A stretch of DNA of 64,000 bases from Candidatus Buchananbacteria bacterium (GCA_041665005.1 JBAYJR010000003.1:17102-81101); one strand, 5' to 3'. Numbered from the stretch's first letter, positions 8,025-44,935 are shown. Notes: a model not told the origin generated them from the letters alone. Program-made: numbers and translations.

Positions 8025-8486
8025 ATGAAAAAGATAGTAGTGCTTAACTTGGTGGCTTTGTTTTTTTTCTTAGTTTGCCGTTTTATCGCCTATTATTTAT
8101 TATTAAACCCCGAGCTTGCCAGGGGTTTTATTTTTTTGCCGATTTTAACTTGGTCTTTAAAATTTAACACCAATTTAGCTTTTAGTTTGGCCTTACCAAA
8201 TTTTTTGATCATAATTTTAATGGGACTAGTGTTAATTTTTTTGGCCTGGTGGTGGTTTAATAGTTTAAAAAATTTAGTAGCTACCGAAAATTTTTATTTA
8301 GCGTTAATTATTGCCGGCGCCTTGAGTAATTTAAGTGATCGTTTAAACTGGGGCGGAGTGCTAGATTATTGGCAGTTTTTAAATTTATCAATTTTTAATT
8401 TAGCGGATGTTTTGATTGTGGTCGGAATTATCGGATTATTGCTAAAAAATTTATTAGTTAACGAAAACAAAACTTATGTCCGCTAA
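8025..8486 (+). CDS. lspA: Lipoprotein signal peptidase (signal peptidase II)
   Basis: 'GALSNLSDRL' and 'FNLADVLIVVG' LspA signatures. 4-TM topology. Confidence 0.8.
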   Translation: MKKIVVLNLVALFFFLVCRFIAYYLLLNPELARGFIFLPILTWSLKFNTNLAFSLALPNFLIIILMGLVLIFLAWWWFNSLKNLVATENFYLALIIAGALSNLSDRLNWGGVLDYWQFLNLSIFNLADVLIVVGIIGLLLKNLLVNENKTYVR

Positions 8487-9420
8487 GGTTTTTTCGGCCG
8501 CGGTAGTGGGCCTAGATTGTCAGTTAGTGGAAGTGGAGGCTGATGTTTCGCCTTTTAGTCAACCGGGAATTACCATTGTTGGTTTGCCCGATAAGGCGGT
8601 GGATGAAGCCAAAGAAAGAGTGCGTAGCGCCGTTAAAAATTCTAATTTGCAATTTCCTCGGGGCAAGGTGACGGTTAATTTGGCTCCGGCGGATTTAAAA
8701 AAAGAAGGGCCAATTTATGATTTGCCAATGGCCGTTAGTATTTTAATTACCGCCAAAGAATTACCGCAGATTGTCAATAAACAGCAATTATTTATTGGGG
8801 AATTAGCGCTAGACGGTTTATTGCGTCCGGTTTGTGGTGTTATTTCAATTGCGATTTTTTGTCGCGAACATGGGATAAAAGAATTGTTTTTGCCAGAAGC
8901 CAATGCGCCCGAAGCCACCTTAATTCCCGATTTAATTATTTATCCGGTCAAAAATTTAGGCCAATTAATTAATCATCTCAAAGGGCAGGAGTTAATTGAA
9001 GTGGCTAAAGCGTTGGTAATTGAGGCTGAGCAAGTTGTAGCGGTAGATTCGGCGTTTGATTTTGCTTTTATCCGTGGTCAGGAACAGGTTAAGCGTGCTT
9101 TAGAGATTGCCGCGGCGGGCGGGCATAATATTTTAATGTCCGGGCCCCCGGGCTCGGGTAAAACTTTGTTAGCCAAGGCTTTTCCGACTATTTTACCCAC
9201 CATGACTTTAAGAGAAAGCTTGGAAGTGACCAAAATTTATAGCGTGGCCGGGGTGTTGCCAATTGATAAGCCGTTAATTGTGCAACGTCCTTGGCGTAAT
9301 CCGCATCATACGGCTTCGGGAGCGGCTTTGGTCGGCGGTGGCGCTTGGCCGCGGCCGGGAGAAATTTCTTTAGCACATCGCGGCGTGTTATTTTTAACAA
9401 GAGTCCCGCAATCAGCATAA
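8476..9420 (+). pseudogene. comM: ComM/YifB Mg-chelatase-family ATPase, 5' fragment. It is interrupted after '...AHRGVLFL' by the inserted element and runs into the stop as 'TRVPQSA*'.
   Basis: N-terminal Lon-like domain plus Walker A 'MSGPPGSGKTLLAK'. The protein is about 300 aa short of family length, and the missing C-terminus is found at 22881-23513. Confidence 0.8.
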
Positions 9421-9585
9421 GCAATTCTTTACTCATAACGATCCCGATTCTCTCAGAAACCGAGAGAAGACGGGAGGTTTTGGCTACCAATCCAGGAATG
9501 CATCGCGGGCGTAGTTCTGTATGATTACGTACTATCTGAAGATATGGCGGCAATTTATGAAAAATAAAACGACATAGTACTACAT

Positions 9586-10152
9586 ATGAAAATGCTTCAG
9601 GAAAAAGAGGATTTCCTCAAAAATACAATCCGCAACGCCATTGCGGTTAATCCGCTTGTTTCAATTCGCAGGATGCAGGAGATTGTTGAGAGTAACACGG
9701 GCCGTTCAATCAGCGACAAGTACGTTTCTAAATTGATGCGTAAAATCAGACGCCAAGCGGTTATTCAATCGGATCGGAAACAGATGAACGAGCGACTCGC
9801 CGAGATTAGAGAACGATTCAGGGTACTCACTGACGATTTATTCAGAACAATTTACTGGAAACCGGACTTTATTAAACAGTATGGATTATCCTACCCATCC
9901 CAGAAAGAACGATTCGCGGCGATGAAACTACTCGCTCAACTGGACCTCGCGCTTTTTCATGCAGAACTGGACGCCGGAATGTTCGAAGATAGACAAAAAG
10001 CCATAGGAGATATACTCCAACAAGGAATGCTCCCAAATGAGCTGAGAGAGCAGGTTATAGGCGTATTCAGAACATGGAAAATGGCACCGATATACAAAGG
10101 GACTAAAGTATCTTCTAATTTATCAGTAATGCCACACACCGATGGCTCGTAA
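9586..10152 (+). CDS. Hypothetical protein (possible N-terminal HTH), element cargo
   Basis: ORF track. Island-type codon usage. Confidence 0.5.
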   Translation: MKMLQEKEDFLKNTIRNAIAVNPLVSIRRMQEIVESNTGRSISDKYVSKLMRKIRRQAVIQSDRKQMNERLAEIRERFRVLTDDLFRTIYWKPDFIKQYGLSYPSQKERFAAMKLLAQLDLALFHAELDAGMFEDRQKAIGDILQQGMLPNELREQVIGVFRTWKMAPIYKGTKVSSNLSVMPHTDGS

Positions 10153-10306
10153 AAACATACCAACAAGCGGATATGATGCAATAGAGATAAGAGCTATGAT
10201 CACATCATCCAAAATGGAATTTCCAAAGAAGTGGAATAGGATCAAAAATATTACAAGCGTGAATAGCTTGTTGAGTATGGATCCGAGCTCACTATGGAAT
10301 GATCGT

Positions 10307-11767
10307 TTACTCATCGTCGTCTAATTCGTTTTTATCAAGTATCGTCAAATGTGGTTTAGCCCAATCCTCTCCATAAGCATCGCGTGTAATTTCTAAATGA
10401 GAAGGATCAGCCGCTTGTTCAATCGAATCCAGATATTGGAAGAACTCACTCTTGGTATTTGGGCTGAAAACTTTTACAGGATACCGGGACATATCAGTTT
10501 TAATCGGTTCTTCTTGTAAAAGCGCGGCCATACCGTTATCGATGAAAATCGCATCACAATACGGCAATAAGTTTGCTATGGCATTAACATCTGTGAACGT
10601 CCCTTTATTGGGCGGTTCCTTTTGTCCACTGGATGCTTTTCTGGCGATACCGGCGTAAAGCAACGAAGAAATACGCACTGACGGAATCTCCGTAACATAT
10701 TTGGATGAAAGATACTCGATGGCTTTTTTGATGGCATCTTCACCATCAATTCCTCGGCCGCGCAATGTTCGAATAAGGGCTTGAATAAGCTCGCTGGAAG
10801 GAGGTGGAAAAATGTCATTCAGGTCGATGTCCGGCTCTTTTCCCTGAAGATACTGATCGGCATACTTTTGTGGCAGCGCAGCCTGCTTTTTGAGGAACTT
10901 TAAATGAGCTAAAACAGTGCCTTTCCCAAAAGCATAGGCTTCTTCATTAACCCATTCCATGAAATTGCGTCCTCTCTCCTGTTGCCATCGCTGAAATACA
11001 CTTTTCATAGCTTCGTATTGGCTATTCCTTTCCTTGTGGACCGCTTCAAGCTGCCCATCATAGGGGCGCATGTTTACACTAACTCGCATTCTTCCAAGCC
11101 ATTCATGGAGACGACCGTGCACGATGTTGTCGACTTTAAGCTCGAGCGGCTTATCCGGCACATCATTCAAATAATTTTCAAAATGCTCCTGCACTTGAAA
11201 ACGTAGGATTGTATGATGATCGTAAAAAGTACACCCACTGGAAAGTCTTTCATAGACCTTCTTTAGCGACTTATATGGTGGGTCACCAGATAAGAGTGAT
11301 TCATCCGTGTGAAATGTAGAGTCAGGACAAACCACAAGATTCAACATCAGCAACCGATCGAGTTTTTTATATGCTTCAAGCCAAAATGGTTGAGCAATAA
11401 CCTTCTCATGACTACGAGCTGTTTTATCGAGTGCCTTCGTCATATTGCTGATAAGAAATTGGTCAAGATAGATGATTTTCTTTTTGATTTCGGGTAGAGA
11501 AAAACCTTGCTGATGCCAGCAAGTAGTACATTCACGCGAATATCCATTCCCGCCGGTTCCCACAAATACACCAAATGTCTCCTTCCCGCATTTTGGGCAC
11601 GTCTTATATGGACCAGAAATAAAATCTGCACGGGTGATGTGCTTTACGCGTTCTTCAAGTTGAGCCCTACGTTCATCTTTGGCGAGGCAACATTTCTTGT
11701 ATTTTTTTCCACTGCCACAGGAACAAGGGTCATTTCTTCCAACTTTAGTCATAGGATTCCGATTCAA
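10307..11767 (-). CDS. SEC-C motif plus zinc-ribbon protein with a large uncharacterised C-terminal domain
   Basis: N-terminal 'NDPCSCGSGKKYKKCC' SEC-C metal-binding motif, then 'CPKCGKE...CTTC' ribbon. 486 aa, divergent to the R-M operon. Confidence 0.6.
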   Translation of the reverse strand: MNRNPMTKVGRNDPCSCGSGKKYKKCCLAKDERRAQLEERVKHITRADFISGPYKTCPKCGKETFGVFVGTGGNGYSRECTTCWHQQGFSLPEIKKKIIYLDQFLISNMTKALDKTARSHEKVIAQPFWLEAYKKLDRLLMLNLVVCPDSTFHTDESLLSGDPPYKSLKKVYERLSSGCTFYDHHTILRFQVQEHFENYLNDVPDKPLELKVDNIVHGRLHEWLGRMRVSVNMRPYDGQLEAVHKERNSQYEAMKSVFQRWQQERGRNFMEWVNEEAYAFGKGTVLAHLKFLKKQAALPQKYADQYLQGKEPDIDLNDIFPPPSSELIQALIRTLRGRGIDGEDAIKKAIEYLSSKYVTEIPSVRISSLLYAGIARKASSGQKEPPNKGTFTDVNAIANLLPYCDAIFIDNGMAALLQEEPIKTDMSRYPVKVFSPNTKSEFFQYLDSIEQAADPSHLEITRDAYGEDWAKPHLTILDKNELDDDE

Positions 11768-11843
11768 CTACACGATACTTTTATTGCGTAATTATATGTC
11801 CACAAATTTGCACTGTCAACAAAAGTAAAGTATAATAAATTCC

Positions 11844-12020
11844 ATGACATTGAAAGACGAATTTTATACGGCCGAAGAACTGGCGACAAAGCTGAAGCTT
11901 AACGTCATGACGATTTACCGGTATATTAAGGCCGGTAAATTAAAAGCGCTCAAAATTGGCAAAGAATACCGCATCAATCGAGCCGAATTTGCGAAGTTTC
12001 TTAATAAATCAAAACTATAA
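11844..12020 (+). CDS. Small HTH_17/MerR-like (excisionase-family) DNA-binding protein, 58 aa. Absent from the ORF track, which has a 60-aa cutoff.
   Basis: 'LKLNVMTIYRYIKAGKLKALKIGKEYRI' helix-turn-helix. ATG at 11844, TAA at 12018. TATAAT at about 11832. It is the first gene of a coupled operon. Confidence 0.55.
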   Translation: MTLKDEFYTAEELATKLKLNVMTIYRYIKAGKLKALKIGKEYRINRAEFAKFLNKSKL

Positions 12021-12023
12021 TTT

Positions 12024-12692
12024 ATGATCAAGCTTAAATTACTTCCACCAGAAGACATAAAAAATAAAGCGATATGGTTTCAGAAATTTCGGAACGAGTG
12101 CAAGGCATATCTTGCCAAGCACGGAATTGACTACGACAAATTTACCATAGTCGAACACGACGGTTACATTGGCTTCATCTCCGAATGGGTTCTCTCTCAG
12201 TACATACGTGACGAGTTTCACGATGCAATCAAGGAGTGTTCTCCATGGGAGGACAAATTCGATCTTAAGCGAATCGAAAGAATTATAGAAAAAAATTCCA
12301 TGGACGAGGGAGATGTAGCATACGTAAAAGAGTATTTCTACGACAGCTGGGATCTAATGGTTGCTACCAAAGAAGTCGCTTATAGATGTGACATAAAGAC
12401 GGCCCTAACCAAGAAAGAGCCACAACTAAACTGGAATTTTCTCTATCCCATAATTCAAGCAGAAAAATCGGGCAAAGACCTAATGATACTCATCTATTAC
12501 ATCTATGAGGGGGATGATTTTCACAATCTGACTGGTGAGGTATTGATAGGCGCAACAACATACGATGCGATAAAAAAGTGCCCCGTCTTGAAGAAAGGAG
12601 ATACCAGTAAATTCGGGACGAAAAGTCAAGCAGACAATTACGTAACTGAGCTGTCGCGTGACTACTCTGAATTAAGTAAATTCATTCACTGA
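12024..12692 (+). CDS. Hypothetical 222-aa protein, translationally coupled between the HTH gene and Type III mod
   Basis: 3-nt gaps to both neighbours. No recognisable motif. Confidence 0.55.
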   Translation: MIKLKLLPPEDIKNKAIWFQKFRNECKAYLAKHGIDYDKFTIVEHDGYIGFISEWVLSQYIRDEFHDAIKECSPWEDKFDLKRIERIIEKNSMDEGDVAYVKEYFYDSWDLMVATKEVAYRCDIKTALTKKEPQLNWNFLYPIIQAEKSGKDLMILIYYIYEGDDFHNLTGEVLIGATTYDAIKKCPVLKKGDTSKFGTKSQADNYVTELSRDYSELSKFIH

Positions 12693-12694
12693 AC

Positions 12695-14368
12695 ATGAAA
12701 AGGAAAATAAACTACGACAATTGGTCAAAAGAGGAGCTGATTAAAGAACTACGCCGCATTAAAGAAACTAAGTACGGCCTTGTTTGGCATCGCGATTTGC
12801 CGGAAGAAAAGATCGACATATTGATCAATCCCGATGCCCGCACGCCCAGCGAGATGTTCCCGAACGAAATGGCGGGCCGGCCATTCCCTGTCCTAAAAGA
12901 GGTTAAGAACCGCGCCATCGAATCCGACGGCTCGAAGCCGGTTAATCTACTCATCGAGGGCGACAACTACCACTCACTCGCCGTTCTGAACTTCACACAC
13001 CAAGAAGCAATTGATGTTATCTATATTGATCCACCATACAACACTGGGAATAACGATTTTATCTATAGGGATAAATTTGAAAGTGACTATGTGAAAAATG
13101 ATGATCCTTTTCGGCATAGTAAGTGGATCTCTTTTATGGAACGACGGCTGAAGTTAGCGAAAAATCTATTGTCAAAAAAGGGAGCAATTTTCATAAGCAT
13201 TGATGACAATGAGTATGGGCCATTAAAGCTATTGTGTGACGAGCTTTTGGGGGAAGTGAACTTCTTGGGAACTATAGTAAGAAGACGCAGAGGTTCGCAA
13301 GCGAATTTATCAAAGAACATTTCCACGATACATGAGTATGTTCTCTGTTACGCCAAAGGCAGAGAGACACAATTAAATCGACTGACGTTTGAAGCGAAAA
13401 TAGATGACTTCAAAAATCCAGACAAAGATTCACGGGGCCCTTATGTAACAATGCCCTGCACAAATAAAGGTGGTGCAAAATATACAATTACTACTCCTAC
13501 TGGCAAAAAACATACTGACGAATGGCGATTTAAGGAAGAAACATATCTGGAATTGTTAAAAGATAGCCGAATTGTTTTTCCCAAAAAAGGCGATGGCAAA
13601 CCTCGATACAAACTTTTCTTAAAAGAAAAGGAAGGGAGTGGCGTGATCGCCAGTACTTGGTGGGACGATGCCGCTACCAACCAAGAAGCGACGTCGGAGT
13701 TAAAGGCCTTGTTTGGAGGAGAGTTGGTATTCAACAACCCCAAACCCGTTGGTTTAATAAAGCGAATCATAGCATTGGCATCAGATAAAAATTCAACGAT
13801 TCTCGATTTCATGGCCGGATCAGGAACGACTGGACACGCTGTTATGGAACTCAACAAAGAAGATGGCGGCCAGCGGCAATTTATCCTCTGTACTAACAAC
13901 GAAAACAACATTTGTACCGATGTGTGTTATCCCAGAATCAAAAAGGTTATCGAGGGTTACAAAAACTTGAAGAAAGAAAAAGTGGATGGATTGGGAGGCA
14001 ACCTGAGATACTACACTTGCGACTTTGTCGAAGCTAAGCCGACCGATCTCTGTAAACGCAAGCTCGTAAATGAATGCACCGAGATGCTCTGCATCCATGA
14101 AAATACCTTCGAGCTGGTACAAGATGATAAGGACTTCAAAATCTTCAGAAACGGCGACCGATACCTTGGTATTGTATTCTACGAAGACGCAATTGATGAC
14201 TTCAAAAAAGCGATCGTGAAAATTAAAGGTCACTGCAATGCATACATTTTCTCGATGACCGACGATCCAAACAAGAGTCAGTTTGCCGATGTCGCCAGCA
14301 AGGTGACACTGTGTGCCATACCTGAAGTGATCCTGAAGGTTTATCGGGAAATCTTCAAAGAGCAATAA
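12695..14368 (+). CDS. mod: Type III restriction-modification DNA methyltransferase (Mod, N6-adenine, beta class)
   Basis: 'IYIDPPYNTGN' (motif IV DPPY) precedes 'DFMAGSGTTGHAV' (motif I). Size and order are typical of Type III Mod. Confidence 0.9.
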   Translation: MKRKINYDNWSKEELIKELRRIKETKYGLVWHRDLPEEKIDILINPDARTPSEMFPNEMAGRPFPVLKEVKNRAIESDGSKPVNLLIEGDNYHSLAVLNFTHQEAIDVIYIDPPYNTGNNDFIYRDKFESDYVKNDDPFRHSKWISFMERRLKLAKNLLSKKGAIFISIDDNEYGPLKLLCDELLGEVNFLGTIVRRRRGSQANLSKNISTIHEYVLCYAKGRETQLNRLTFEAKIDDFKNPDKDSRGPYVTMPCTNKGGAKYTITTPTGKKHTDEWRFKEETYLELLKDSRIVFPKKGDGKPRYKLFLKEKEGSGVIASTWWDDAATNQEATSELKALFGGELVFNNPKPVGLIKRIIALASDKNSTILDFMAGSGTTGHAVMELNKEDGGQRQFILCTNNENNICTDVCYPRIKKVIEGYKNLKKEKVDGLGGNLRYYTCDFVEAKPTDLCKRKLVNECTEMLCIHENTFELVQDDKDFKIFRNGDRYLGIVFYEDAIDDFKKAIVKIKGHCNAYIFSMTDDPNKSQFADVASKVTLCAIPEVILKVYREIFKEQ

Positions 14369-14369
14369 T

Positions 14370-16607
14370 ATGACAAACGTCGAACTCAAAAATTATCAAG
14401 AAAAAGCAGTTGCGGATATCCGCGACAAAGGAAACCGGCTGTTCGAAAAGGACGGCAGCCGCATTTTGGTATTCAAGGCCCCGACTGGCTCGGGCAAAAC
14501 GCTCATGATGGCTGAATGGATGATGCGACTATGTGATCCATTCTCACGCACCGATGGCAAGAAGTTCTCCTTCATTTGGATCGCAGTCAATAAACTCCAC
14601 GACCAAAGCCATAACAACCTGAAGAAGTTCTATGCGAAAGAAGGGCTTGGTCTCCGGTGCTCATATTTTGAGGATTTGGAGGAGAGGCAGATCAAGCAGA
14701 ACGAAATTCTATTTCTCAACTGGGCAAGTATTAACAAGGAAGGAAACATATACATTCGCGCCAACGAACGTGATAACAACATTTCGAACGTCATTGAGCG
14801 GACAAAAGAAGCTGGCCGCACGGTCGTGCTCATCATCGATGAAAGCCATCACACTGCCAAAAGTGACAATTCACGTGAACTTATTGATGGCATCGGCCCG
14901 AAGCTCACTGTCGAAGTGTCAGCTACGCCTCAGCTCACCAATTTCGTAGACGAAATCGTGACCGTCGAGCTTGCTGACGTAAAAGACGAAGGCATGATCA
15001 AACGAGAGATAACCATCAATCCGGGCTTCGAAAGCTACAAGTTCGACAAGAAAATCAAAGACAAGGCAGCCGATGAGATCGTGATCGAAGCGGCGCTCAA
15101 GGCGCGCGCTGGACTCGTGAAAGCGCTCGCCGCAGAGGGATCGAGCGTCAACCCGCTCCTTCTCATCCAGCTACCGGATGCTCGCAAGGGACTGATCGAT
15201 AAAAAAGACATCGTGATTCAAATCCTCGCAAAATACGGCATCACAACAAAGAATGGCAAACTCGCGATCTACCTTTCGGAAAAAGACAATAAGATCAATC
15301 TTGAAAACATCGAAAAGAACGAGAACGAAGTGGAAGTGATGATCTTCAAACAAGCGATTGCGCTTGGCTGGGATTGCCCACGTGCTTCAATTCTCGTTCT
15401 CTTCCGCGAATGGAAAAGCATGGTGTTCTCCATTCAAACGGTGGGCCGGATTATGCGTATGCCGGAGCACCGCCACTACAAGGACCCGGCACTGAACATC
15501 GGGTATGTCTACACCAGCTTGAGCGACATCACCATCGCTGAGGACATCGCCAAGGAATACGTGACGGTCTACTACGGACGCCGTCGCGACGATTATAAAA
15601 ACATTGATTTCGCCTCCTATCACTCGAAACGCTTCCGCGAGGAAACGCGTTTGTCGGCCGACTTTGTGCCGATCTTCTTCACTGCCGCAGACGAACAGAA
15701 ACTTAAAACCAAAATCTCGCTCAAGCACAGCATCGTAGATACAAAGCTTATAGCGAGTGGCCGGATCACAGATGTGGACAAGGAAGCTAAGAGTATCGAG
15801 AAAAAAGGAACGCTGGATATACCAAAAACAGAAACCGAACTGCAGGCCGCGTTCGACAATTTCGCACGTGAGAATCTTGCGCCATTCGCGCCGGAGCTCC
15901 GATCGCTCAAACGAATCAATGACTCAATCTACAGATTCTTCGATAAGGCGTTCAAGATGGGACTCGATGACTGGCCAAAAATTCAAGCCATCGTGCTTGC
16001 AGAAGAAAACCGACAGGCCCTCGTTGACGTCATCAATCGCGCAAAAGAGCTGTATCAAGAAGCGGTCGGCAAGGGTAAGCATGAGGTAGTGCAAAACGAT
16101 GAGCCGTGGAACGTGCCGGAGGAAATTCGCTACAACATCACATTCACAAAAAAAGACTATAAAAAATCCGTCATCCAACCCTACTACGCAAAAACACAAG
16201 GCGACAGCTCGATAACGGACTTTGAGGAAGATAGCGCGGTCGAGGTTTCATTTATCGACACACTCGAGAAGGCAAAAAAGGTGAAGTGGTGGTTTAAGAA
16301 TGGCAGTAAGGATGGATCGTATTTCGCCGTGCCTTATACCGAGAATGGAATGCAAAAAGCATTCTACGTAGACTTCATTGTCATGCTGACTGACGGATCA
16401 ATTGGCCTTTTCGATACCAAGGGCGGCATCTACGCGCAAACCGCAAAGGATCGTGCCGAGGGACTTGCCGCATACCTCGCCAAAAGCAAGAAGCTTTTCG
16501 GCGGCATTGTCGTCAAAGATAAAAACAGCTGGCGTTATAACGACAATAATAAATACAACTATGATCAGAACAATCTCAAGGATTGGAAGTTCTTGGACAT
16601 AAGCTAA
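14370..16607 (+). CDS. res: Type III restriction enzyme Res subunit (SF2 helicase plus nuclease)
   Basis: Walker A 'KAPTGSGKT' and motif II 'IIDESHH'. Start is 2 nt after the mod stop. Confidence 0.9.
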   Translation: MTNVELKNYQEKAVADIRDKGNRLFEKDGSRILVFKAPTGSGKTLMMAEWMMRLCDPFSRTDGKKFSFIWIAVNKLHDQSHNNLKKFYAKEGLGLRCSYFEDLEERQIKQNEILFLNWASINKEGNIYIRANERDNNISNVIERTKEAGRTVVLIIDESHHTAKSDNSRELIDGIGPKLTVEVSATPQLTNFVDEIVTVELADVKDEGMIKREITINPGFESYKFDKKIKDKAADEIVIEAALKARAGLVKALAAEGSSVNPLLLIQLPDARKGLIDKKDIVIQILAKYGITTKNGKLAIYLSEKDNKINLENIEKNENEVEVMIFKQAIALGWDCPRASILVLFREWKSMVFSIQTVGRIMRMPEHRHYKDPALNIGYVYTSLSDITIAEDIAKEYVTVYYGRRRDDYKNIDFASYHSKRFREETRLSADFVPIFFTAADEQKLKTKISLKHSIVDTKLIASGRITDVDKEAKSIEKKGTLDIPKTETELQAAFDNFARENLAPFAPELRSLKRINDSIYRFFDKAFKMGLDDWPKIQAIVLAEENRQALVDVINRAKELYQEAVGKGKHEVVQNDEPWNVPEEIRYNITFTKKDYKKSVIQPYYAKTQGDSSITDFEEDSAVEVSFIDTLEKAKKVKWWFKNGSKDGSYFAVPYTENGMQKAFYVDFIVMLTDGSIGLFDTKGGIYAQTAKDRAEGLAAYLAKSKKLFGGIVVKDKNSWRYNDNNKYNYDQNNLKDWKFLDIS

Positions 16608-16985
16608 GCACCAGAATCGCGTTAGACAAAAAAATTGGAGCCCCCAGAGGAGTTGTGGCAAGATTCGGAGATTGATAGGGACTTCTGGCTAAAAGCGCAA
16701 CCCTGAGAGCCACAGCAAGAACCATGAGCAATTAAGTAGATTTATTCATATGAATACGGCATAATAGAAATCGACAATTGAATATCAAAGGACCTAACCC
16801 TTTCGGATTAACCCGGGAGGTATGGTCGAAAATCGCATGACTGCAAAGATCCCATCATCAGGATCGCAGTCATGCGTTATGCGGGGAAACTCGCATATGA
16901 GCCGCAAGGCTCTACCTGGTGGTGGGTTTTTTGCAAAAAAGACCCGGTCAAACACCAGGTTAAGTAATTAACTTAACCAACGACT

Positions 16986-18050
16986 ATGATCAGAAAAATA
17001 AGCTGGATCTTCTCGATACTGTTTGGACTCGTGGGCATCGCCTCTTTAGCGAAAACTCCCATATTCGGACTTCTCACGCTCGTACTTGCGATCGTCATCT
17101 TTCCAAAAACAAAAGAGTTCATCAAAAATAAATTCGGCTATATTCTATCGCGCAAATTAAAAATAGGAATTGCTATTGTGTTATTCATCGGGATGGTGAT
17201 AGCCCTTCCCGGAACCAAAGTCACACCAGCAGTAGAAAATCAACAATCAACTCTGCAACAGGCCAACGAACAGGCGGCCGCCACTACTTCTCCGGAGGCT
17301 ACGACTCAACCTCAGTCCGATTCGATTTCCACTCCCCAAACTCAAGTCGCCGACGGCCAACAAAACAATCCGGCGCCTACTCCGACTCAAGCGCAACCAT
17401 CTGGCCTCGTAAAAGTCGTGTCAGTAACCGATGGCGATACAATCAAAGTATCAATAAACGGTACTACACAAACAATCAGAATGATCGGCATGGATACACC
17501 GGAGACGGTTGATCCGAGGAAGCCAGTCCAGTGTTTCGGCAAAGAAGCATCAAACAAAACAAAAGCTACATTGTTGAATCAGATGGTTCGATTAGAGTCC
17601 GATCCAACGCAGGGAGATTTGGATAAATACCAAAGACTGCTCAGATATGTCTTTCTGTCCGACGGCACCAACTTCGAGAAATCCATGATCGAACAGGGAT
17701 ACGCTTACGAATACACGTATAATATTCCATACAAGTATCAAGCCGAATTCAAGGCCGCACAGAAAGATGCCCAACAGAACCAGCGCGGACTGTGGAGTCC
17801 GACAACCTGCAATGGTACGACGAGTCCAACTTCGGGAACGACTCAGCCGACACCAACTCCAACAGCACAACCAGCTCAGACAAGTGGCCACACATTTTAT
17901 TTGAGCAGTTATAAGACGGCAAAGTACTACTACTGCGATACCGATGACGGCTGGAAAGGACTCACTCCAGAATACCTGAAGTCATATCCATCAGAACAAG
18001 CACTGCTCAAAGACTATCCTTCGAGGACACTACACGAAGCGTGCAAATAA
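16986..18050 (+). CDS. Secreted or membrane-anchored thermonuclease (SNase / micrococcal nuclease family) with a TQP-rich linker and a C-terminal Cys-containing domain
   Basis: 'VTDGDTIKV...IRMIGMDTPET...YQRLLRYVF...EQGYAY' SNase core. N-terminal TM. Confidence 0.8.
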   Translation: MIRKISWIFSILFGLVGIASLAKTPIFGLLTLVLAIVIFPKTKEFIKNKFGYILSRKLKIGIAIVLFIGMVIALPGTKVTPAVENQQSTLQQANEQAAATTSPEATTQPQSDSISTPQTQVADGQQNNPAPTPTQAQPSGLVKVVSVTDGDTIKVSINGTTQTIRMIGMDTPETVDPRKPVQCFGKEASNKTKATLLNQMVRLESDPTQGDLDKYQRLLRYVFLSDGTNFEKSMIEQGYAYEYTYNIPYKYQAEFKAAQKDAQQNQRGLWSPTTCNGTTSPTSGTTQPTPTPTAQPAQTSGHTFYLSSYKTAKYYYCDTDDGWKGLTPEYLKSYPSEQALLKDYPSRTLHEACK

Positions 18051-18146
18051 AAAGTGACCCTATATTTTCTTTGATTTTAGGCCGTTTTTTCGGTATCATG
18101 ATATTACAACAGTGTTAGATTAACATGACTATTAACCTAAATTATT

Positions 18147-18965
18147 ATGATGCTCGAGGAAGAATTCAACAAAGATATCTGGTCTCTTTTGCAGGAGATT
18201 AAGAGCAAAATTTTGCGTGCGTCCCAGGGGTCGGATGTTGAATTTCTTAAACCTGCAACTGAACGGTTATCGCTTTTTAGTAAATTAAAGGAATGGGGCG
18301 TAACTGATGATGATTGGGTATTTGCTAAAGACTACGTAGGGCTTGAGAAATTGATTTTAACCGTCCATCAACCGGAGTTTGATCAACTCTACGACAAATT
18401 TAAATACGAATTTTCTCCCAAAATACAAATTTTGGAAAGAGAAATTATTAGAGAAAGACCAGAGCAAGAGAAGATTACTAAAAACAAATTCCCCTATAGG
18501 TTGCCGTCAGGCACAATATGGGCAAATGTTACCATCAAATTTTTAGACGATGAAAATATATTCATCCAAGTTGGGCGCTTCAAGCACAGCACCAACTATA
18601 AAGAAATGGGGTTTGTTGGCAAAGGCAATAACCCTAATCCAAGTGAGGGGTGGGTATTTCTAAGGGTGTTAGCAAGGGTACATGGCGAGCTAACCCTAAA
18701 AGACCCTGAGGCAAGAGATAAGTATAAAAAACAAAAGGAATTATTAACAAAATCACTTCAAGATTATTTTTCTATAGACTATGATCCATTTTTTCCATAC
18801 CGCTCTTCTACAGAGAAACATGGCAATTCCTATCAAATTAAAATAACCTTAATTCCATCATTGTCAGACCAAAACGAAAAAGGGCCTGTTGATGATGACA
18901 ATGATGGGCTCGGCGTAAAAGAGTACTTAGATAGCCAAACCAAACAGGTATACGAGGAAGAATAG
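18147..18965 (+). CDS. Hypothetical protein (element cargo)
   Basis: ORF track. Acidic C-terminus. Confidence 0.5.
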   Translation: MMLEEEFNKDIWSLLQEIKSKILRASQGSDVEFLKPATERLSLFSKLKEWGVTDDDWVFAKDYVGLEKLILTVHQPEFDQLYDKFKYEFSPKIQILEREIIRERPEQEKITKNKFPYRLPSGTIWANVTIKFLDDENIFIQVGRFKHSTNYKEMGFVGKGNNPNPSEGWVFLRVLARVHGELTLKDPEARDKYKKQKELLTKSLQDYFSIDYDPFFPYRSSTEKHGNSYQIKITLIPSLSDQNEKGPVDDDNDGLGVKEYLDSQTKQVYEEE

Positions 18966-19102
18966 CGAAACTCGCCTATAGCGCTTGAATAAATAAGAAG
19001 ACCTAAACTCCCCACAAAATGGGGAGTTTTTACATTTTTTCATTTTCAGCGTGAAATTCGCCATCTATGAGTAGACGAAGGTAATTAACCTAACTAAATT
19101 AT

Positions 19103-19381
19103 ATGACCAAAATATTAGCAGACCAGGAATTAGACAGTTTTGACGATCAGGTAAGGTTTTTTAATACGTTTGATTTAGGCGCCGCCGCATCACTTGCTAC
19201 GGCGGGTTTTGAGTTGATCACTTTAGATAAGTCAAACCCTCGCAAAGTTCAATTCGTCTTTTGCCGGACAAACGGCATCGAAAAGGTCGTGGACGATTAT
19301 TGGGCCGACAAGTTGGAGGTCAAAGCGAGGTCGTTTTTTGACAACGTAAAAATGTTAAAAAATCGTATTTATAGCGAATAA
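19103..19381 (+). CDS. Hypothetical small protein
   Basis: ORF track. Confidence 0.4.
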   Translation: MTKILADQELDSFDDQVRFFNTFDLGAAASLATAGFELITLDKSNPRKVQFVFCRTNGIEKVVDDYWADKLEVKARSFFDNVKMLKNRIYSE

Positions 19382-19386
19382 ATTAT

Positions 19387-19671
19387 ATGAACCAAAATAA
19401 CGAAGAAAATAAGATTGACGATGGGGACTTGATAATCATTACGGTGGAGATTTCAAAGGAAGAAATACAATCGTTAGCCAGTGGCAACTTCGGCAGAGAA
19501 CTCACCGACATTGAAATCAACAGGATTAAAGAATGCTGGTATGACTCTGACGCTGTTTTTGATAATAGGTGTGGTTTAATTTTGGCCGCAATCGAAGATG
19601 CAACAGATGAGAAAAATGGTTGGTGGAATCAAGTAGATAAAGATTTTATAGATCAGCAGAAAAGTAAGTAG
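19387..19671 (+). CDS. Hypothetical small acidic protein
   Basis: ORF track. 5-nt gap from the upstream ORF. Confidence 0.4.
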   Translation: MNQNNEENKIDDGDLIIITVEISKEEIQSLASGNFGRELTDIEINRIKECWYDSDAVFDNRCGLILAAIEDATDEKNGWWNQVDKDFIDQQKSK

Positions 19672-19849
19672 CCGAATACTAAAGCCATGTCAGAAAAAAG
19701 AGAATTACAAATAAAAATAGCAACGCAAGTAATACCCGAGGACGTTTCAGATCGGACACTATTCGCATTGTTTGATTTTCTTTTGACTGACAAAACGCAA
19801 CAAGGCAAAGATGAAAAGGTCGAGCCGATATTAGCAACAACTACTGATT

Positions 19850-20566
19850 ATGAAAACAAAATATAGACCTGGAACCTTCATCACGGTTCCCAGTAAATAC
19901 AGAATCAAAGAAATTGATGCGATCGGTCAAAGCGTCTATATGTGGCTTTCTGATCACGCTAATTCAGCCGGTCTTTGCTTCCCGAGCATCAACAGATTGG
20001 CAAAGCTTTGCAAGGTAACCAAAAATACAATAAAGGATCGTATTCGTAAGCTGGAGAAATTGGGGTTAGTAAGAAAACAATTGCGAAAGAAAAACAACAA
20101 AGAGAACCAATCCAATTTATATCAAGTCGTAGAAGATAATTGGATGCCGACCGATAAGGGTAGGTCAGCACATGACCAACCCGGGTCACCAAGTGACCGC
20201 GGGGTAGATCAACAGATGGCTGGTAACTCAAATCATTCTGAACTCAATCCACAGGACCAAAGCATATATATGCCCTTGCCTCCTCGAAAAACCGCTACAA
20301 TCGATTATCTTGAAAACATTTCCGAGAGTGATGTTATGGAAATCGCCGAGAAATACGGAGTAAGCCGCGAATTTGTACGTGACAACGTAGAAAACGTAAC
20401 CCTCCATTGCGCTTCAGTCGGTAAGGAATACAAAAATTATAAAGCCACTCTCATCCGTTTTATAAAGATCAACAAAGAAAGAATGTGGGAAAAAGAACAT
20501 GCAGGAAAGCCCAAAGGAATTTTCAAGTCGTACCACAGCAAATACGCCGGTATTGGAGATAAATGA
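19850..20566 (+). CDS. Winged-HTH protein (HTH_36-like), putative replication or regulatory protein of the element
   Basis: 'FPSINRLAKLCKVTKNTIKDRIRKLEKLGLV' wHTH, typical of phage and plasmid replication-initiator N-termini. Confidence 0.5.
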   Translation: MKTKYRPGTFITVPSKYRIKEIDAIGQSVYMWLSDHANSAGLCFPSINRLAKLCKVTKNTIKDRIRKLEKLGLVRKQLRKKNNKENQSNLYQVVEDNWMPTDKGRSAHDQPGSPSDRGVDQQMAGNSNHSELNPQDQSIYMPLPPRKTATIDYLENISESDVMEIAEKYGVSREFVRDNVENVTLHCASVGKEYKNYKATLIRFIKINKERMWEKEHAGKPKGIFKSYHSKYAGIGDK

Positions 20567-20658
20567 CAAGCAATATGGGGCAACTCATCCATTACCTTGA
20601 CTTACAATCACTATCCCGGCACCTGTTGTAGTAAGGTCGAAAATTAACCAATAAAAAT

Positions 20659-21162
20659 ATGAACAAAGCAACAATTACAAAGAAGAGGGCGGCGATCTAT
20701 CTTCGGACCGCCAACGATGATCAACAAGGGTCTGGAATCGCAGAGCAAGAAGTACAGTTGAGGGCTTTTGTAGCCTCGAACGACTACTTGGTCGATAAAA
20801 AGCACGTATACAAAGACAGTGGCGTTTCCGGACTACTTCCATTGGAAAAAAGGTCAGGGGCAAAAAAATTATTTGAAGGCGCGGAGAGGCATGAGTTTGA
20901 CTTGATAATCGTCAAAGGAGTCGACAGAATCTCCCGAGGCTATCACCATTTTTTTGAAATGTTAGACAAATTCTCACGCCTCAAAGTAGGCATCAAGGCT
21001 GTAGATGGGTCGATTGATACGCTAACTACTTCCGGTAAAGCAAGGGCTGGACTTCTGACAACAATGATGACGGCGATGGCGAGGTTCGAAAATGATGCCC
21101 TGCGAGAAAGATTAATGCGCGGAAAGCTTGCCGCCAAAGAAAGACGACCAATGAATAAATAA
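20659..21162 (+). CDS. Truncated serine-recombinase catalytic-domain paralog with the nucleophile replaced (RTANDDQ instead of RVSTDEQ). No DNA-binding domains.
   Basis: About 40% identical to the N-terminus of the downstream recombinase. The leader sequence AAAATTAACCAATAAA is duplicated upstream of both genes. Confidence 0.7.
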   Translation: MNKATITKKRAAIYLRTANDDQQGSGIAEQEVQLRAFVASNDYLVDKKHVYKDSGVSGLLPLEKRSGAKKLFEGAERHEFDLIIVKGVDRISRGYHHFFEMLDKFSRLKVGIKAVDGSIDTLTTSGKARAGLLTTMMTAMARFENDALRERLMRGKLAAKERRPMNK

Positions 21163-21184
21163 TTAAAATTAACCAATAAACACC

Positions 21185-22909
21185 ATGGAAACAATAATAA
21201 GCACGAAGAAAATAAGAGCGGCGATCTACATGCGAGTTTCCACAGACGAACAGCTGAAGGGGCATGGAATGGCGGTTCAAGAAGAAAAATTAAGATACTT
21301 CGTAAAAGCCAACGATTACATACTCGAAGAAAAGCACGTCTACAAAGACGAAGGGTTTTCGGGATCACTGCCGGTTGAGCATCGGCCGGACATACAGAGA
21401 CTGATGGAAAATGGAAAGAAATCAGAATTTGATGTAGTTCTGGTTTGGAAGCTTGATAGAATGTTTCGGAGTGCGCGTCTGATGCTCAACATGGTCGAGG
21501 ACTTATCGAAATATAAAGTCGGGGTAAAATCTGCAACCGAGCCATTCGATACGACAACCATTTTCGGGAAAGGAATGGTCGGCTTCCTCGCAGTCATGGC
21601 AGAGATGGAAAGGGACACTATCAGGGAAAGGACCACGGGTGGAAGAATCAGGGCCGCGCAAAGTGGTAAGTGGGTAACAGGAGTCCCCCCTTACGGATAT
21701 AATCTCATAAAAGAAACCGGACAACTTGAGATAAATAAAGAGGAGGCGAAATGGGTGAAGATGTACTTTAAGTGGATTGTTGCGGATCGATTGCCTCTGC
21801 GTGAGATTCAGAGAAGGGCTAATAATATGAAAATACCGATTGCTCGCAGAAAGGTCTCAAACAAAAAGACTCATAACTACTGGCATACTCGAACGATTGG
21901 CAGAATGTTGACCAATGAAACCTATACTGGAACAGCATTCTTCAGAAAGTACAAAAGACCATTCAAAAACCTGACCAGCGTTACCGACGAAAGCCTTCTC
22001 AGGGAAAAAGCCGGATGGATAAGCATTAAAGTCCCGGCAATCATTACCAGGGAGTTATACGATACCTGCATAAAACAACTCCTCAAAAATCGTGAGTTTT
22101 CCAAACGGAACCTAAAGCGAACATATCTTTTTTCAAAGCTTATTTATTGTGGATCATGCGGATTCAAGCTCTTTGGAGGATATCAGCCACCAAGGAAAGA
22201 CGGGCGTGCGGGTACCAAGTACTATCATGGTTGGTGTACCAAAGCTGAGGTCGGGATCAGCAGAAGATGCCTAACGTGTGAGCAGGTATCAGAGATGCGC
22301 CTTCTTCCGATATGGGAACGACTGAAAGAAATCCTGAAGAAGCCGGAATTAACACTGGAAAAACTCGCAAGGTACAACACTGAGAAGATTAAACAGGACG
22401 ATACAGAAGAAAAGCTGGACCAGATCAAAAAGACCTTTGAGACGCTGGCCACCAAACGGCAAAGGCTCGGAATGTTATTCTCAGAAGGTGAATTTGACCA
22501 TGACAGCTACAAGAAGGCTCTGATAGAATGTAAAAGCCAAGAAGAACAACTCCGACAGGAACAACTAAGGCTCGAGCGTCAGCTACTCACAAAGAAAGAG
22601 ATCCGGGAGATAGCGAACGTCATCGATGGGCAGTATAAGAAGCTCATAGCACGACTGGACTCGCTGACATACGAAGAAAAACAAGAAGCAATCAGGCTGG
22701 TAGTAAACAGAGTAACGGTATATCCTAAGAGGGCTGAGGCCGAAGTAGAGTTCAACTTCAATCCAAATATTCAAACACCATCGCCTCTTATTGGGGCAAT
22801 CCGGGAGCCTGTCTATGCTCAATTGCAGGACAATAACGCTAAGACCGGTCTCACAACCATAACGGGGGTAGGGGTAAATAGTGGGTTGCGGGGCGTTAGC
22901 CTTGGATGA
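21185..22909 (+). CDS. Large serine recombinase (integrase)
   Basis: 'AAIYMRVSTDEQ' catalytic motif, recombinase domain, Cys-rich zinc ribbon 'CGSCGFKL...CLTCE', coiled-coil. The 3' end reads across the right junction. Confidence 0.9.
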   Translation: METIISTKKIRAAIYMRVSTDEQLKGHGMAVQEEKLRYFVKANDYILEEKHVYKDEGFSGSLPVEHRPDIQRLMENGKKSEFDVVLVWKLDRMFRSARLMLNMVEDLSKYKVGVKSATEPFDTTTIFGKGMVGFLAVMAEMERDTIRERTTGGRIRAAQSGKWVTGVPPYGYNLIKETGQLEINKEEAKWVKMYFKWIVADRLPLREIQRRANNMKIPIARRKVSNKKTHNYWHTRTIGRMLTNETYTGTAFFRKYKRPFKNLTSVTDESLLREKAGWISIKVPAIITRELYDTCIKQLLKNREFSKRNLKRTYLFSKLIYCGSCGFKLFGGYQPPRKDGRAGTKYYHGWCTKAEVGISRRCLTCEQVSEMRLLPIWERLKEILKKPELTLEKLARYNTEKIKQDDTEEKLDQIKKTFETLATKRQRLGMLFSEGEFDHDSYKKALIECKSQEEQLRQEQLRLERQLLTKKEIREIANVIDGQYKKLIARLDSLTYEEKQEAIRLVVNRVTVYPKRAEAEVEFNFNPNIQTPSPLIGAIREPVYAQLQDNNAKTGLTTITGVGVNSGLRGVSLG

Positions 22910-23513
22910 ATTGCCAGAATTTCCTCGTCAGGTTTTAGAAAATTTACGTCAGCCTTTAGAGGATGGTATTATCTCGGTGTCGCGAGTGCAGGGAACCTTG
23001 CAGTTTCCGGCTAAATTTATTTTAGTCGCGGCAATGAATCCTTGTCCTTGCGGTTATGCCACGGATCCAGACCGGCAATGTATTTGCGGCGCCAGTCAGA
23101 TTATTAAATATCAGAAAAAGATTTCGGGACCACTACTTGATCGAATCGATTTGCATGTGGAAGTGCCCAAAGTTAAGTTTGAAAAATTGGCTGACGATAG
23201 TTTGGCCGAAGATTCGGTTGCTATTCGTCAGCGCATTCAACAGGCGAGAACTCAGCAATTAACCCGGTTTAAGGGGTTAAATTTAGTAACTAATTCAGAA
23301 ATGTCTCAGCAGCAAATTAAAGAATTTTGTCAGATAGATGTGGCAACTCAGCAGCTATTAAAAACTGCCGTGGAACAACTACAACTTTCAGCTAGAGCTT
23401 ATTTTAGAATTTTAAAATTGGCGCGCACTATTGCGGATTTGGCCTCCAGTGTTAAAGTAGAATTAGCCCATGTGGCTGAGGCCCTACAGTATCGGCCTAA
23501 AATTTCGGAATAA
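22881..23513 (+). pseudogene. comM: ComM/YifB 3' fragment (C-terminal AAA lid / Mg-chelatase C domain) downstream of the insertion. Begins '(V)GCGALALDELPEF'.
   Basis: 'DELPEF...RQVLENLRQPLEDG...NPCPCGY' is the conserved continuation of ComM after 'GVLFL'. There is an in-frame stop just upstream. Confidence 0.8.
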
Positions 23514-44551: not shown

Positions 44552-44935
44552 TGGTGGAGATGAGGGGAATTTCACCCCTGTACAAAAGTAATTTTAAAAT
44601 TGTTCTACCAATATAGCTAATTTAAAGGTTGGCCGACAAACTAAAAAACTAGCAAAAAGCTTGCCAGCTGAGCCCGCAATTTGGTCAACAAGTTTGGCAG
44701 GCGCAAAATTGTCCAAGTCTAATAAATGACACCGGTAACTAGCGATTAGACATAACTAGGCCGATGGCTTTAGGTATTAAGCTAAAGCAGGAGCAAAAGT
44801 TAAAGAGGCAAAAGCATCCTTAACCCTGCTAATAAGTGAGTTGGCACTTATAAATTTGATTGAAGTTTAACGAGGTTCAATTTGCTCGACTGGCACAATT
44901 TTAAAACAAGCTCTTGGCGATTTAGAGACATCCCC
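44552..44935 (-). ncRNA. ssrA: tmRNA (SsrA), about 384 nt, immediately downstream of smpB
   Basis: 5' GGGGAUG pairs with 3' CAUCUCC-A-CCA, giving the G3:U70 alanine identity pair. T-arm-like AGGGG-UGAAAUU-CCCCU. Encoded CCA. Candidate tag ORF '...DAFASLTFAPALA*'. Canonical smpB-ssrA synteny. Confidence 0.8.

Follow-up and report, generated by a model that had tools for sequence, protein, structure and literature searches.

A serine-recombinase integrative element in comM of Candidatus Buchananbacteria and its apparent array of attachment sites with different central dinucleotides

The window is a stretch of 64,000 nucleotides from a Candidatus Buchananbacteria bacterium (GCA_041665005.1 JBAYJR010000003.1:17102-81101), in which the competence gene comM, also known as yifB, is split by an insert of 13,508 bp (one copy of the crossover core counted). 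The locus raises the question of what has split the gene, how it entered and why an intact second attachment-like site lies beside the one at the junction. The insert is almost certainly an integrative element of a large serine recombinase (LSR). This is what the original prediction had proposed for this genome of the Candidate Phyla Radiation, and the LSR domains, the split comM and the att junctions all support it. The best explanation overall, to which a probability of roughly 0.78 is assigned, is that the element carries an array of attP sites with different cores through which it can enter codon variants of one target. Related loci are referred to below by number (L001 and so on).

The break in comM falls at the Leu codon preceding the Walker-B ‘DE’ (GVLF-L-DE). 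The 5′ open reading frame (ORF), 8476-9420, matches Pfam ChlI and positions 1-116 of Mg_chelatase, and the 3′ ORF, 22881-23513, matches positions 108-206 of Mg_chelatase together with Mg_chelatase_C. Rejoining ...HRGVLFL (to 9396) with DELPEF... (from 22905) gives a ComM of 509 aa. This protein is 61-69% identical to the ComM/YifB proteins of Patescibacteria (504-537 aa, mostly Buchananbacteria), with 99-100% of the length aligned, and G[VIL]LFLDE stands at the position of the join in 118 of the 120 best ComM matches. The premature stop at 9420 and the continuation from 22881, both described earlier, are confirmed by the Pfam halves and by this alignment.

A search of relatives for an uninterrupted comM had also been proposed, and L246 supplies one, preceded by a dksA-type zinc finger gene and lspA as in the window. 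The attB DNA of L246, catcgcggtgttttgttt TTA gatgagtttcccgaattt, is close to the reconstructed attB of the window, catcgcggcgtgttattt TTG gatgaattgccagaattt. The original prediction named a comM that is naturally two genes at this position as the finding that would overturn it; in relatives the gene is single and full-length, in one of them with the same synteny. The same architecture recurs in independent assemblies, with the same element in the same context on three contigs, and the junctions have the exact attL/attR geometry of an LSR. These observations refute both a natural two-gene locus and a join created by the assembly, and the probability left to either is negligible.

The insert is also set apart by its composition. 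Its GC content is 43.4% vs 38.7% in the host, where windows of 13.5 kb range from 37.8 to 39.5%. The tetranucleotide distance from the host mean is 0.27-0.50 within the insert and 0.12-0.18 outside it. The GC skew is lower within the insert, and the AT skew is about +0.1 to +0.2 across most of its length and near zero at the left end. The compositional break that had been expected is therefore present by GC content, tetranucleotide distance and skew scan alike.

The LSR retains the nucleophile motif YMRVSTDEQ, and its catalytic residues, S19 and R17 among them, vary little or not at all in an alignment of 30 sequences. Conserved Cys residues are found at C322, C325, C362 and C365. The Zn_ribbon_recom domain (PF13408) was found in the homologues P0026, P0054 and P0120, and is absent from the window LSR at E<=0.01. 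The ORF crosses the spare attP-like site and attR and ends with a stop codon at 22907-22909, in agreement with the earlier remark that the 3′ end of the gene reads across the right junction. The last ~30 residues are encoded by att DNA, and the protein has 574 aa in the window vs 538 aa in L005. The tail differs among integrated forms and would differ in the excised form.

There are 424 homologues of this LSR, and the named sources among the matches listed are Patescibacteria, except for one Firestonebacteria and one unclassified ‘bacterium’. Ten homologues were looked up by protein id, and every one adjoins a comM 3′ fragment or its first codons; the contig of L247 stops ~30 bp beyond attR. 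A further 14 loci from genome and metagenome scans split comM identically, and at least 20 related Patescibacteria elements split the gene at the same codon. The scan of metagenome contigs with the integrase alignment gave mostly unrelated LSRs, as the peptide patterns were too generic, and only L086 was useful. The LSR of L087 (34% identity) is accompanied by neither a comM fragment nor an attP site.

Serine integrases such as Bxb1 and phiC31 cleave attP and attB at the central dinucleotide and, after rotation of the half-sites, rejoin them only where the overlaps match. The core dinucleotide of LSRs can be exchanged as a module, a property exploited for orthogonal targeting (PMC10083194; PMC3936721). 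Across the 14 elements with two readable junctions, the only bases at which attL and attR always agree are positions 1-2 of the codon before ‘DE’. The positions flanking the core agree in at most nine of the 14, and the third base of the codon usually differs between attL and attR (TTA/TTG, CTA/CTG, ATA/ATG). The crossover is pinned to these 2 bp because only codon positions 1-2 are always common and the third base usually differs. The left side of L022 was unusable owing to runs of N near the expected attL.

Both junctions are hybrid sites, formed without target duplication. The imperfect repeat GCGG(C/G)G(T)GTTA noted earlier at the two junctions exists as a likeness but is no duplication; it is the host B arm cgcggcgtgtta resembling the element P arm tgcggggcgtta, the two having a GNGG block at an equal distance from the core. 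A crossover at the ‘GTTA’ or ‘GCGG’ of this repeat was ruled out, since only the TT/CT/AT position is common to all 14 elements. It had further been suggested that excision could restore ComM in either of two junction frames. HRGVLFL joined to DELPEF is indeed host sequence, whereas the alternative ‘GALAL’ comes from the P arm of the element.

A motif resembling TTGNGGGAC occupies positions -16 to -8 from the core in each of the 29 P half-sites used, and its TTG, central G and final C hardly vary. All elements with this attP dyad and a non-palindromic core are in direct orientation. The palindromic core AT occurs in both orientations (L014 inverted; L015, L016, L086 and L252 direct), a pattern expected if the core sets polarity. 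A sister LSR subfamily, L008 and L040, splits comM at the same codon and relies on another attP dyad (TTNCAAAC...). In L008 the element runs opposite to comM and its top-strand core is AG, so either the codon before DE is Ser (AGT) or a CT core has integrated in reverse.

The spare dyad, with core CT, lies 63 bp inside attR and is the sole match to at least 11 of the 12 consensus positions in the 64 kb. It is identical at 37 of 38 bases to the attP rebuilt from attL and attR of L005; the site is nearly invariant across 34 bp and its flanks diverge. The integrase of L005 is 97% identical to that of the window, while the host ComM proteins are only ~51% identical. By BLASTN, window positions 21167-22840 correspond to L005 9935-11611, the integrase region up to the L005 attR (91%). 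The adjoining 61 bp (22839-22899) correspond to L005 2543-2603, the first 61 bp inside the L005 attL (92%), and window 9377-10100 corresponds to L005 2589-3324 (93%). The two elements are circular permutations of each other. It follows that L005 entered through the CT site, its host codon being CTG, while its second site survives intact, 63 bp inward of attL. The host codon of the window is TTG; hence the TT site recombined and the CT site was left intact.

The same organization extends to the relatives. A scan with a position weight matrix (PWM) of the dyad found 26 spare sites, every one within an element, and no match in 2.48 Mb of unrelated loci. The arrays hold two to four attP-like dyads with the central dinucleotides CT, TT, AT and GT. 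No core is repeated within an array among 18 arrays and 44 sites (0 of 200,000 label shuffles; 1e-5 for a reduced subset of 11 elements). The core is NT, the first two bases of hydrophobic-residue codons, in 42 of the 44 sites.

In the close family the order is int-(GC)-CT-TT-AT. The CT site is the junction in L003 and L005, the TT site in the window, L001, L007 and L247-249, and the AT site in L086, where the host codon is ATG (Met). In all close-family cases the unused sites are found on the side predicted. The site used always agrees with the codon of the host, whether Leu (TTR or CTN), Met (ATG) or Val (GTT). More distant elements have integrases ~40-48% identical to that of the window, and several come from metagenome-assembled genomes (MAGs) labelled Saccharibacteria. 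Their sites follow the same pattern but lie further apart: L016 and L017 have arrays of CT-GT-TT-AT, L252 has used AT with CT and TT spare, and L251 has used TT with AT spare. The loci L251-L253 were checked after the rule had been set; the first two have spares with differing cores and L253 has none.

These findings make it likely that the spare dyads are alternative crossover sites. Homologous sites exchange roles between the window and L005, three positions of one array serve as junctions in different hosts, and the cores keep to the NT, non-repeating pattern. All of this argues against the alternative that the extra dyads are accessory or regulatory binding sites of the integrase (for autoregulation of int or help in synapsis) or decaying duplicates. 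LSRs are not known to require accessory sites. The dyads and the 3′ end of the integrase ORF do overlap, certain dyads have weak arms or unusual cores, and in the more distant L016, L249 and L252 the sites are separated by genes and by distances of hundreds of bp to kb. These features would suit such a role, which is nevertheless considered quite unlikely.

Several points weigh against alternative crossover sites as the function of the arrays. The shuffle test ignores shared ancestry, and as the elements are related its significance is overstated. Spare cores other than NT occur, GC in L003 and AC in L014. No spare site is present in L009, L010, L250 and L253, with the attL side unplaced in three of the four. 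The homologous second site is TT in the window and AT in L005, from which it follows that cores drift; some sites may be in decay. Activity is inferred from sequence for both attP sites of the window, and neither a directionality factor nor transfer machinery was identified.

Sequence and comparison show that the element entered the chromosome by attP x attB recombination inside comM, with the crossover on the first two bases of the Leu codon. In its circular form, the 3′ end of the integrase gene would hold a CT and a TT attP site separated by 63 bp. In the CTG host of L005, a near-identical element took the CT site instead. Such arrays would let one integrase enter comM alleles in which the residue before DE is Leu-CTN, Leu-TTR, Met-ATG or Val-GTN. 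That the arrays are maintained to cover codon variants is the favoured account of their persistence, held with less assurance than the role of the individual sites. They would then probably be an adaptation to synonymous or near-synonymous codon variation (Leu-CTN, Leu-TTR, Met/Ile-ATN, Val-GTN) that widens the host range of a single integrase. The HTH_36 protein may replicate the excised form, and the restriction-modification (R-M) cargo may stabilise the element.

The separation of Walker A from Walker B means that ComM should be inactive while the element is present. It has been proposed that elements disrupt competence genes to escape removal by transformation. Excision would restore ...GTG TTA TTT TTG GAT GAA... 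exactly (GVLFLDE), the predicted products being the attP junction …gttagccTTaacaagag… and the repaired attB …ttatttTTGgatgaa…. Both comM halves are full-length and free of other lesions, and the integrase and att arms are intact. With the precision of the predicted excision, this could point to a comM switch that excises developmentally or conditionally, as in the active lysogeny at Listeria comK or in Bacillus skin/SPbeta, in place of a selfish inactivator. Any recent or active insertion would look alike, however, and the cargo varies freely among relatives, as is typical of a mobile element and not of a domesticated switch. The switch is considered unlikely, and a mobile element that inactivates comM is preferred.

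The coordinates of the features are collected in Table 1.

Table 1. Features of the element and of the comM fragments in the window, followed by LOOT RNA copies in related loci (positions within the locus named).
Feature	Position	Strand	Basis or remark
comM 5′ fragment; residues 1-307, end ...AHRGVLFL, host-encoded	8476-9396	+	ORF continues into element, stop at 9420; Pfam; aligns with full-length ComM
attL: host B arm 9376-9393, core TT 9394-9395, element P′ arm 9396-9413 aacaagagtcccgcaatc	9376-9413	+	P′ arm 20.4 bits (half-site PWM)
Conserved non-coding left-end block with 7-bp hairpin 9448-9454/9462-9468	9414-9585	+	93% nucleotide identity to L005 over 9377-10100
orf188, conserved left-end gene	9586-10152	+	No match in Pfam, PADLOC, PHROGs, NCBIfam; conserved with L005
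486-aa protein with N-terminal SEC-C metal-binding motif; cargo	10307-11767	-	Pfam SEC-C, residues 11-28 only
orf222, directly upstream of mod	12024-12692	+	No family match (Pfam, PADLOC, NCBIfam)
Type III R-M methyltransferase Mod	12695-14368	+	Pfam N6_N4_Mtase E=2.9e-40; PADLOC MTase_III E=2e-96
Type III-like Res (helicase domain and C-terminal region)	14370-16607	+	Pfam ResIII E=8.9e-21; PADLOC REase_III E=1.3e-19; NCBIfam below cut-off
LOOT RNA (Rfam RF03000)	16791-16913	+	87.3 bits vs gathering score 46.4; 72 bp upstream of SNase gene
Membrane-anchored staphylococcal-nuclease-like protein (putative)	16986-18050	+	Pfam SNase E=5.6e-25; PADLOC ‘SNc+LTD’ E=9e-51; N-terminal hydrophobic segment in translation
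orf272	18147-18965	+	No family match (Pfam, PADLOC, PHROGs)
DUF5659 protein, backbone gene	19103-19381	+	Pfam DUF5659 E=2.5e-13; present too in L003, L247, L248
orf94	19387-19671	+	No family match (Pfam, PADLOC, PHROGs)
HTH_36 protein like phage/plasmid replication initiators, backbone gene	19850-20566	+	Pfam HTH_36 E=3e-13; PHROG replication-initiation E=1.5e-17
167-aa resolvase-catalytic-domain-only protein, nucleophile Ser to Ala (YLRTANDDQ)	20659-21162	+	Pfam Resolvase E=4.4e-25; 43% identical to LSR N-terminus
Large serine recombinase (LSR), 574 aa	21185-22909	+	Pfam Resolvase PF00239 E=8e-35, Recombinase PF07508 E=7e-13; PHROG integrase E=3e-108
Spare intact attP-like dyad, core CT 22839-22840: aattgcaggacaataacg CT aagaccggtctcacaacc	22821-22858	+	Consensus 12/12; half-sites 17.3 + 15.4 bits
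attR: element P arm 22884-22901 gggttgcggggcgttagcc, core TT 22902-22903, host B′ arm 22904-22921	22884-22921	+	Sequence, half-site PWM
comM 3′ fragment, (L)DELPEF... to stop	22902-23513	+	Pfam Mg_chelatase 108-206 and Mg_chelatase_C
LOOT RNA copy, L001	6505-6625		
LOOT RNA copy, L003	7404-7523		
LOOT RNA copy, L005	6992-7114		
LOOT RNA copy, L007	7437-7555		
LOOT RNA copy, L009	5498-5617		
LOOT RNA copy, L040	7185-7303		
LOOT RNA copy, L086	3647-3768		
LOOT RNA copies, L014-L017 and L247-L252			

Judged by its genes, the insert is a 13.5 kb integrative element with a plasmid-like backbone, comprising the HTH_36 replication-initiator-like gene, the DUF5659 gene, the LOOT RNA and the LSR. Homologues of the HTH_36 gene lie upstream of the integrase in L001, L003 and L249. 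No virion structural, packaging or lysis genes were found in the insert (Pfam, PADLOC, PHROGs). Its 12 ORFs include no relaxase, coupling protein or type IV secretion genes (Pfam, PADLOC, PHROGs, NCBIfam), and the insert holds no transposase domain (Pfam).

A defective prophage or phage satellite is very unlikely, since no capsid, terminase, tail or lysis gene was found in the window element or in ~20 relatives. The PHROG matches of the integrase, replication initiator and nuclease, and the HTH_31/Peptidase_M78 pair of L249 and L253, which is like phage repressor modules, are the features that lend it colour. In IMG/VR, two protein scans gave no relative closer than ~30% across the whole integrase, and a search with the attP pattern gave no match. 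A prophage origin was rejected on these grounds.

At the left end of the element, inverted repeats had been described at 9430-9480. The region holds a single 7-bp hairpin, and the attP dyad is the inverted repeat of functional relevance. The hairpin (TTCTCTC/GAGAGAA, 9448-9468) is followed by gacgggaggttttggc, and the block that contains it is recognisable also in L001 and L003. This block could serve as promoter or leader of orf188, as an origin, or to bind an accessory factor.

The resolvase-only gene lies directly upstream of the LSR gene and is preceded by the same ‘aaaattaaccaataaa’ as the LSR. A homologue search with this Ser-to-Ala protein gave as sole match an identical protein, assigned by NCBI to a Candidatus Buchananbacteria MAG, in agreement with the host of the window; there was no other word-sharing homologue. 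Small resolvase-only paralogues are present in L086 (9995-10414), L251 (9358-10020) and L013 (9701-10111). The protein of the window might regulate the integrase, or it might be a remnant.

The cargo includes the Type III R-M system that the original prediction had named, supported by the PADLOC matches of the adjacent Mod and Res genes, which abut at 14368/14370. Res has 745 aa; its PADLOC match covers residues 152-415 only, and the REase_III profiles are longer (809-898 positions). Residues 331-689 match an NCBIfam restriction-endonuclease family below the cut-off of that family, and a motif-like ‘VDF...FDTK’ is visible at the C-terminus without profile support. The SEC-C protein had been counted as a defence gene. 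This was rejected, as a metal-binding motif of 20 residues is its sole match in Pfam, PADLOC and NCBIfam and gives no evidence of such a role. The predicted SNase nuclease does have a nuclease domain, but an N-terminal membrane segment makes it look membrane-anchored or secreted. In place of ‘defence island’, the insert is fairly described as a mobile element rich in R-M genes.

Every relative with a readable interior carries methylase, restriction or related nuclease genes. Type III-like cargo is found in the window, L001, L247 and L250. Other combinations are Dcm with an NgoFVII-like endonuclease and Vsr (L005), EcoO109I with Dcm (L253), Dam-type methylases with an unidentified partner (L003 and L249), a Dam-type methylase with a PDDEXK protein (L252), and a C5 DNA methylase with a PDDEXK nuclease and an SMC/AAA-type ATPase (L251). 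In L003 (3024-4565) a Dam-type methylase is fused to a LexA/S24 peptidase, and L252 (12571-17433) encodes an S24 peptidase alongside a Y-family polymerase (IMS). Such SOS-type cargo may be a sign that these elements bring functions for induction or mutagenesis with them. The SAM riboswitch of L005 (RF00162, 3830-3940 on the minus strand, 65.8 bits), which lies upstream of a 138-aa ORF, is unusual as cargo of a small integrative element.

The LOOT RNA match of the window spans model positions 1-121 of 121. One copy is present in 18 of the 22 comM-integrating LSR elements scanned (the window and 17 of 21 relatives). It lies between the element ends wherever both are known, and is absent from the empty-site locus L246. 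The 3′ end has a terminator-like stem and a T run. An ORF follows the RNA at a distance of 42-73 bp in 16 of the 18 elements, and in many cases this ORF starts with a hydrophobic, membrane- or signal-like segment, as does the SNase of the window. The LOOT RNA looks like a backbone part of the element family, acting as a small RNA or a 5′ leader, and it is a possibility that this orphan RNA is a dedicated regulatory part of the family. The motif reportedly stems from Weinberg et al. 2017, whose main text has no discussion of it.

Elsewhere in the window the host genes include a transfer-messenger RNA gene (44552-44935, minus strand; RF00023, 104 bits), which is ordinary content and not beside the element. 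Six tRNA genes (His, Arg, Asp, Leu and two Met) are also present, none of which adjoins the element.

Serine integrases are workhorses of genome engineering, and the strict matching-dinucleotide rule, though exploited in the laboratory, has been viewed as fixed for an element with its one attP. Full-text searches of the literature turned up neither natural arrays of several attP sites with differing central dinucleotides nor serine-recombinase integrative elements of Patescibacteria. If the proposed function of the arrays is true, it shows how mobile DNA handles codon degeneracy in a conserved protein-motif target, and how near-identical elements move between hosts whose target protein is ~50% identical. 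It would also show that ready-made sets of orthogonal sites for a single enzyme occur in nature. The elements define a widespread R-M-carrying, competence-gene-disrupting family in the poorly known, small-genome Patescibacteria, and give the orphan LOOT RNA a genomic home.

The splitting of a competence or developmental gene by a serine integrase, with precise excision restoring the gene, is shared with the Listeria A118/phi10403S prophages in comK and with SPbeta and skin of Bacillus, for which regulated excision has been demonstrated. Those elements are prophages or domesticated remnants with a single attP, whereas the present element is without virion genes and its excision is predicted from the junctions. 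The AbaR/Tn6022 islands of Acinetobacter share the target comM and the likely loss of ComM-dependent transformation. AbaR islands are Tn7-like transposons that use TnsABC-type transposition with target duplication; in contrast, the present element has no transposase, no duplication and a 2-bp LSR crossover. A literature search also brought up the sr1WO prophages of Wolbachia (serine recombinase group 1; PMC5447182) in connection with Mg chelatase. They are full temperate phages of an alphaproteobacterial endosymbiont, and the serine recombinase is the common feature. These prophages reportedly integrate in a magnesium chelatase gene.

The closest likeness is to the LSR elements surveyed by Durrant 2022 (PMC10083194), with the same recombinase family and target gene family, a disrupted competence gene, short att sites and a 2-bp core. 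In that survey, no target is more enriched than homologues of Mg-chelatase/ATP-dependent protease, whose enrichment is significant and which receive 12.4% of predicted site-specific LSRs; competence genes are likewise overrepresented among the targets. The interruption of comM by a serine integrase, which the original prediction had taken to be undescribed, thus belongs to an enrichment already reported (PMC10083194). Unlike the present work, the survey makes no mention of Patescibacteria or candidate phyla and has one attP per element. The present elements differ from those surveyed in their attP arrays with different cores, the LOOT RNA and the R-M-rich cargo.

The arrays themselves resemble the engineered orthogonal sites of phiC31 and Bxb1 (Colloms et al. 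2014, PMC3936721), in which one integrase serves attP sites differing only in the central dinucleotide. Each such attP pairs only with an attB of matching core, as also in the multiplexed landing pads cited in PMC10083194. Those sites are laboratory constructs, whereas the present arrays are apparently natural, lie within one element and follow the codon variants of one coding target. The element is thus a further case of the known habit of LSRs to enter comM, and its attP array is a new twist on a known mechanism.

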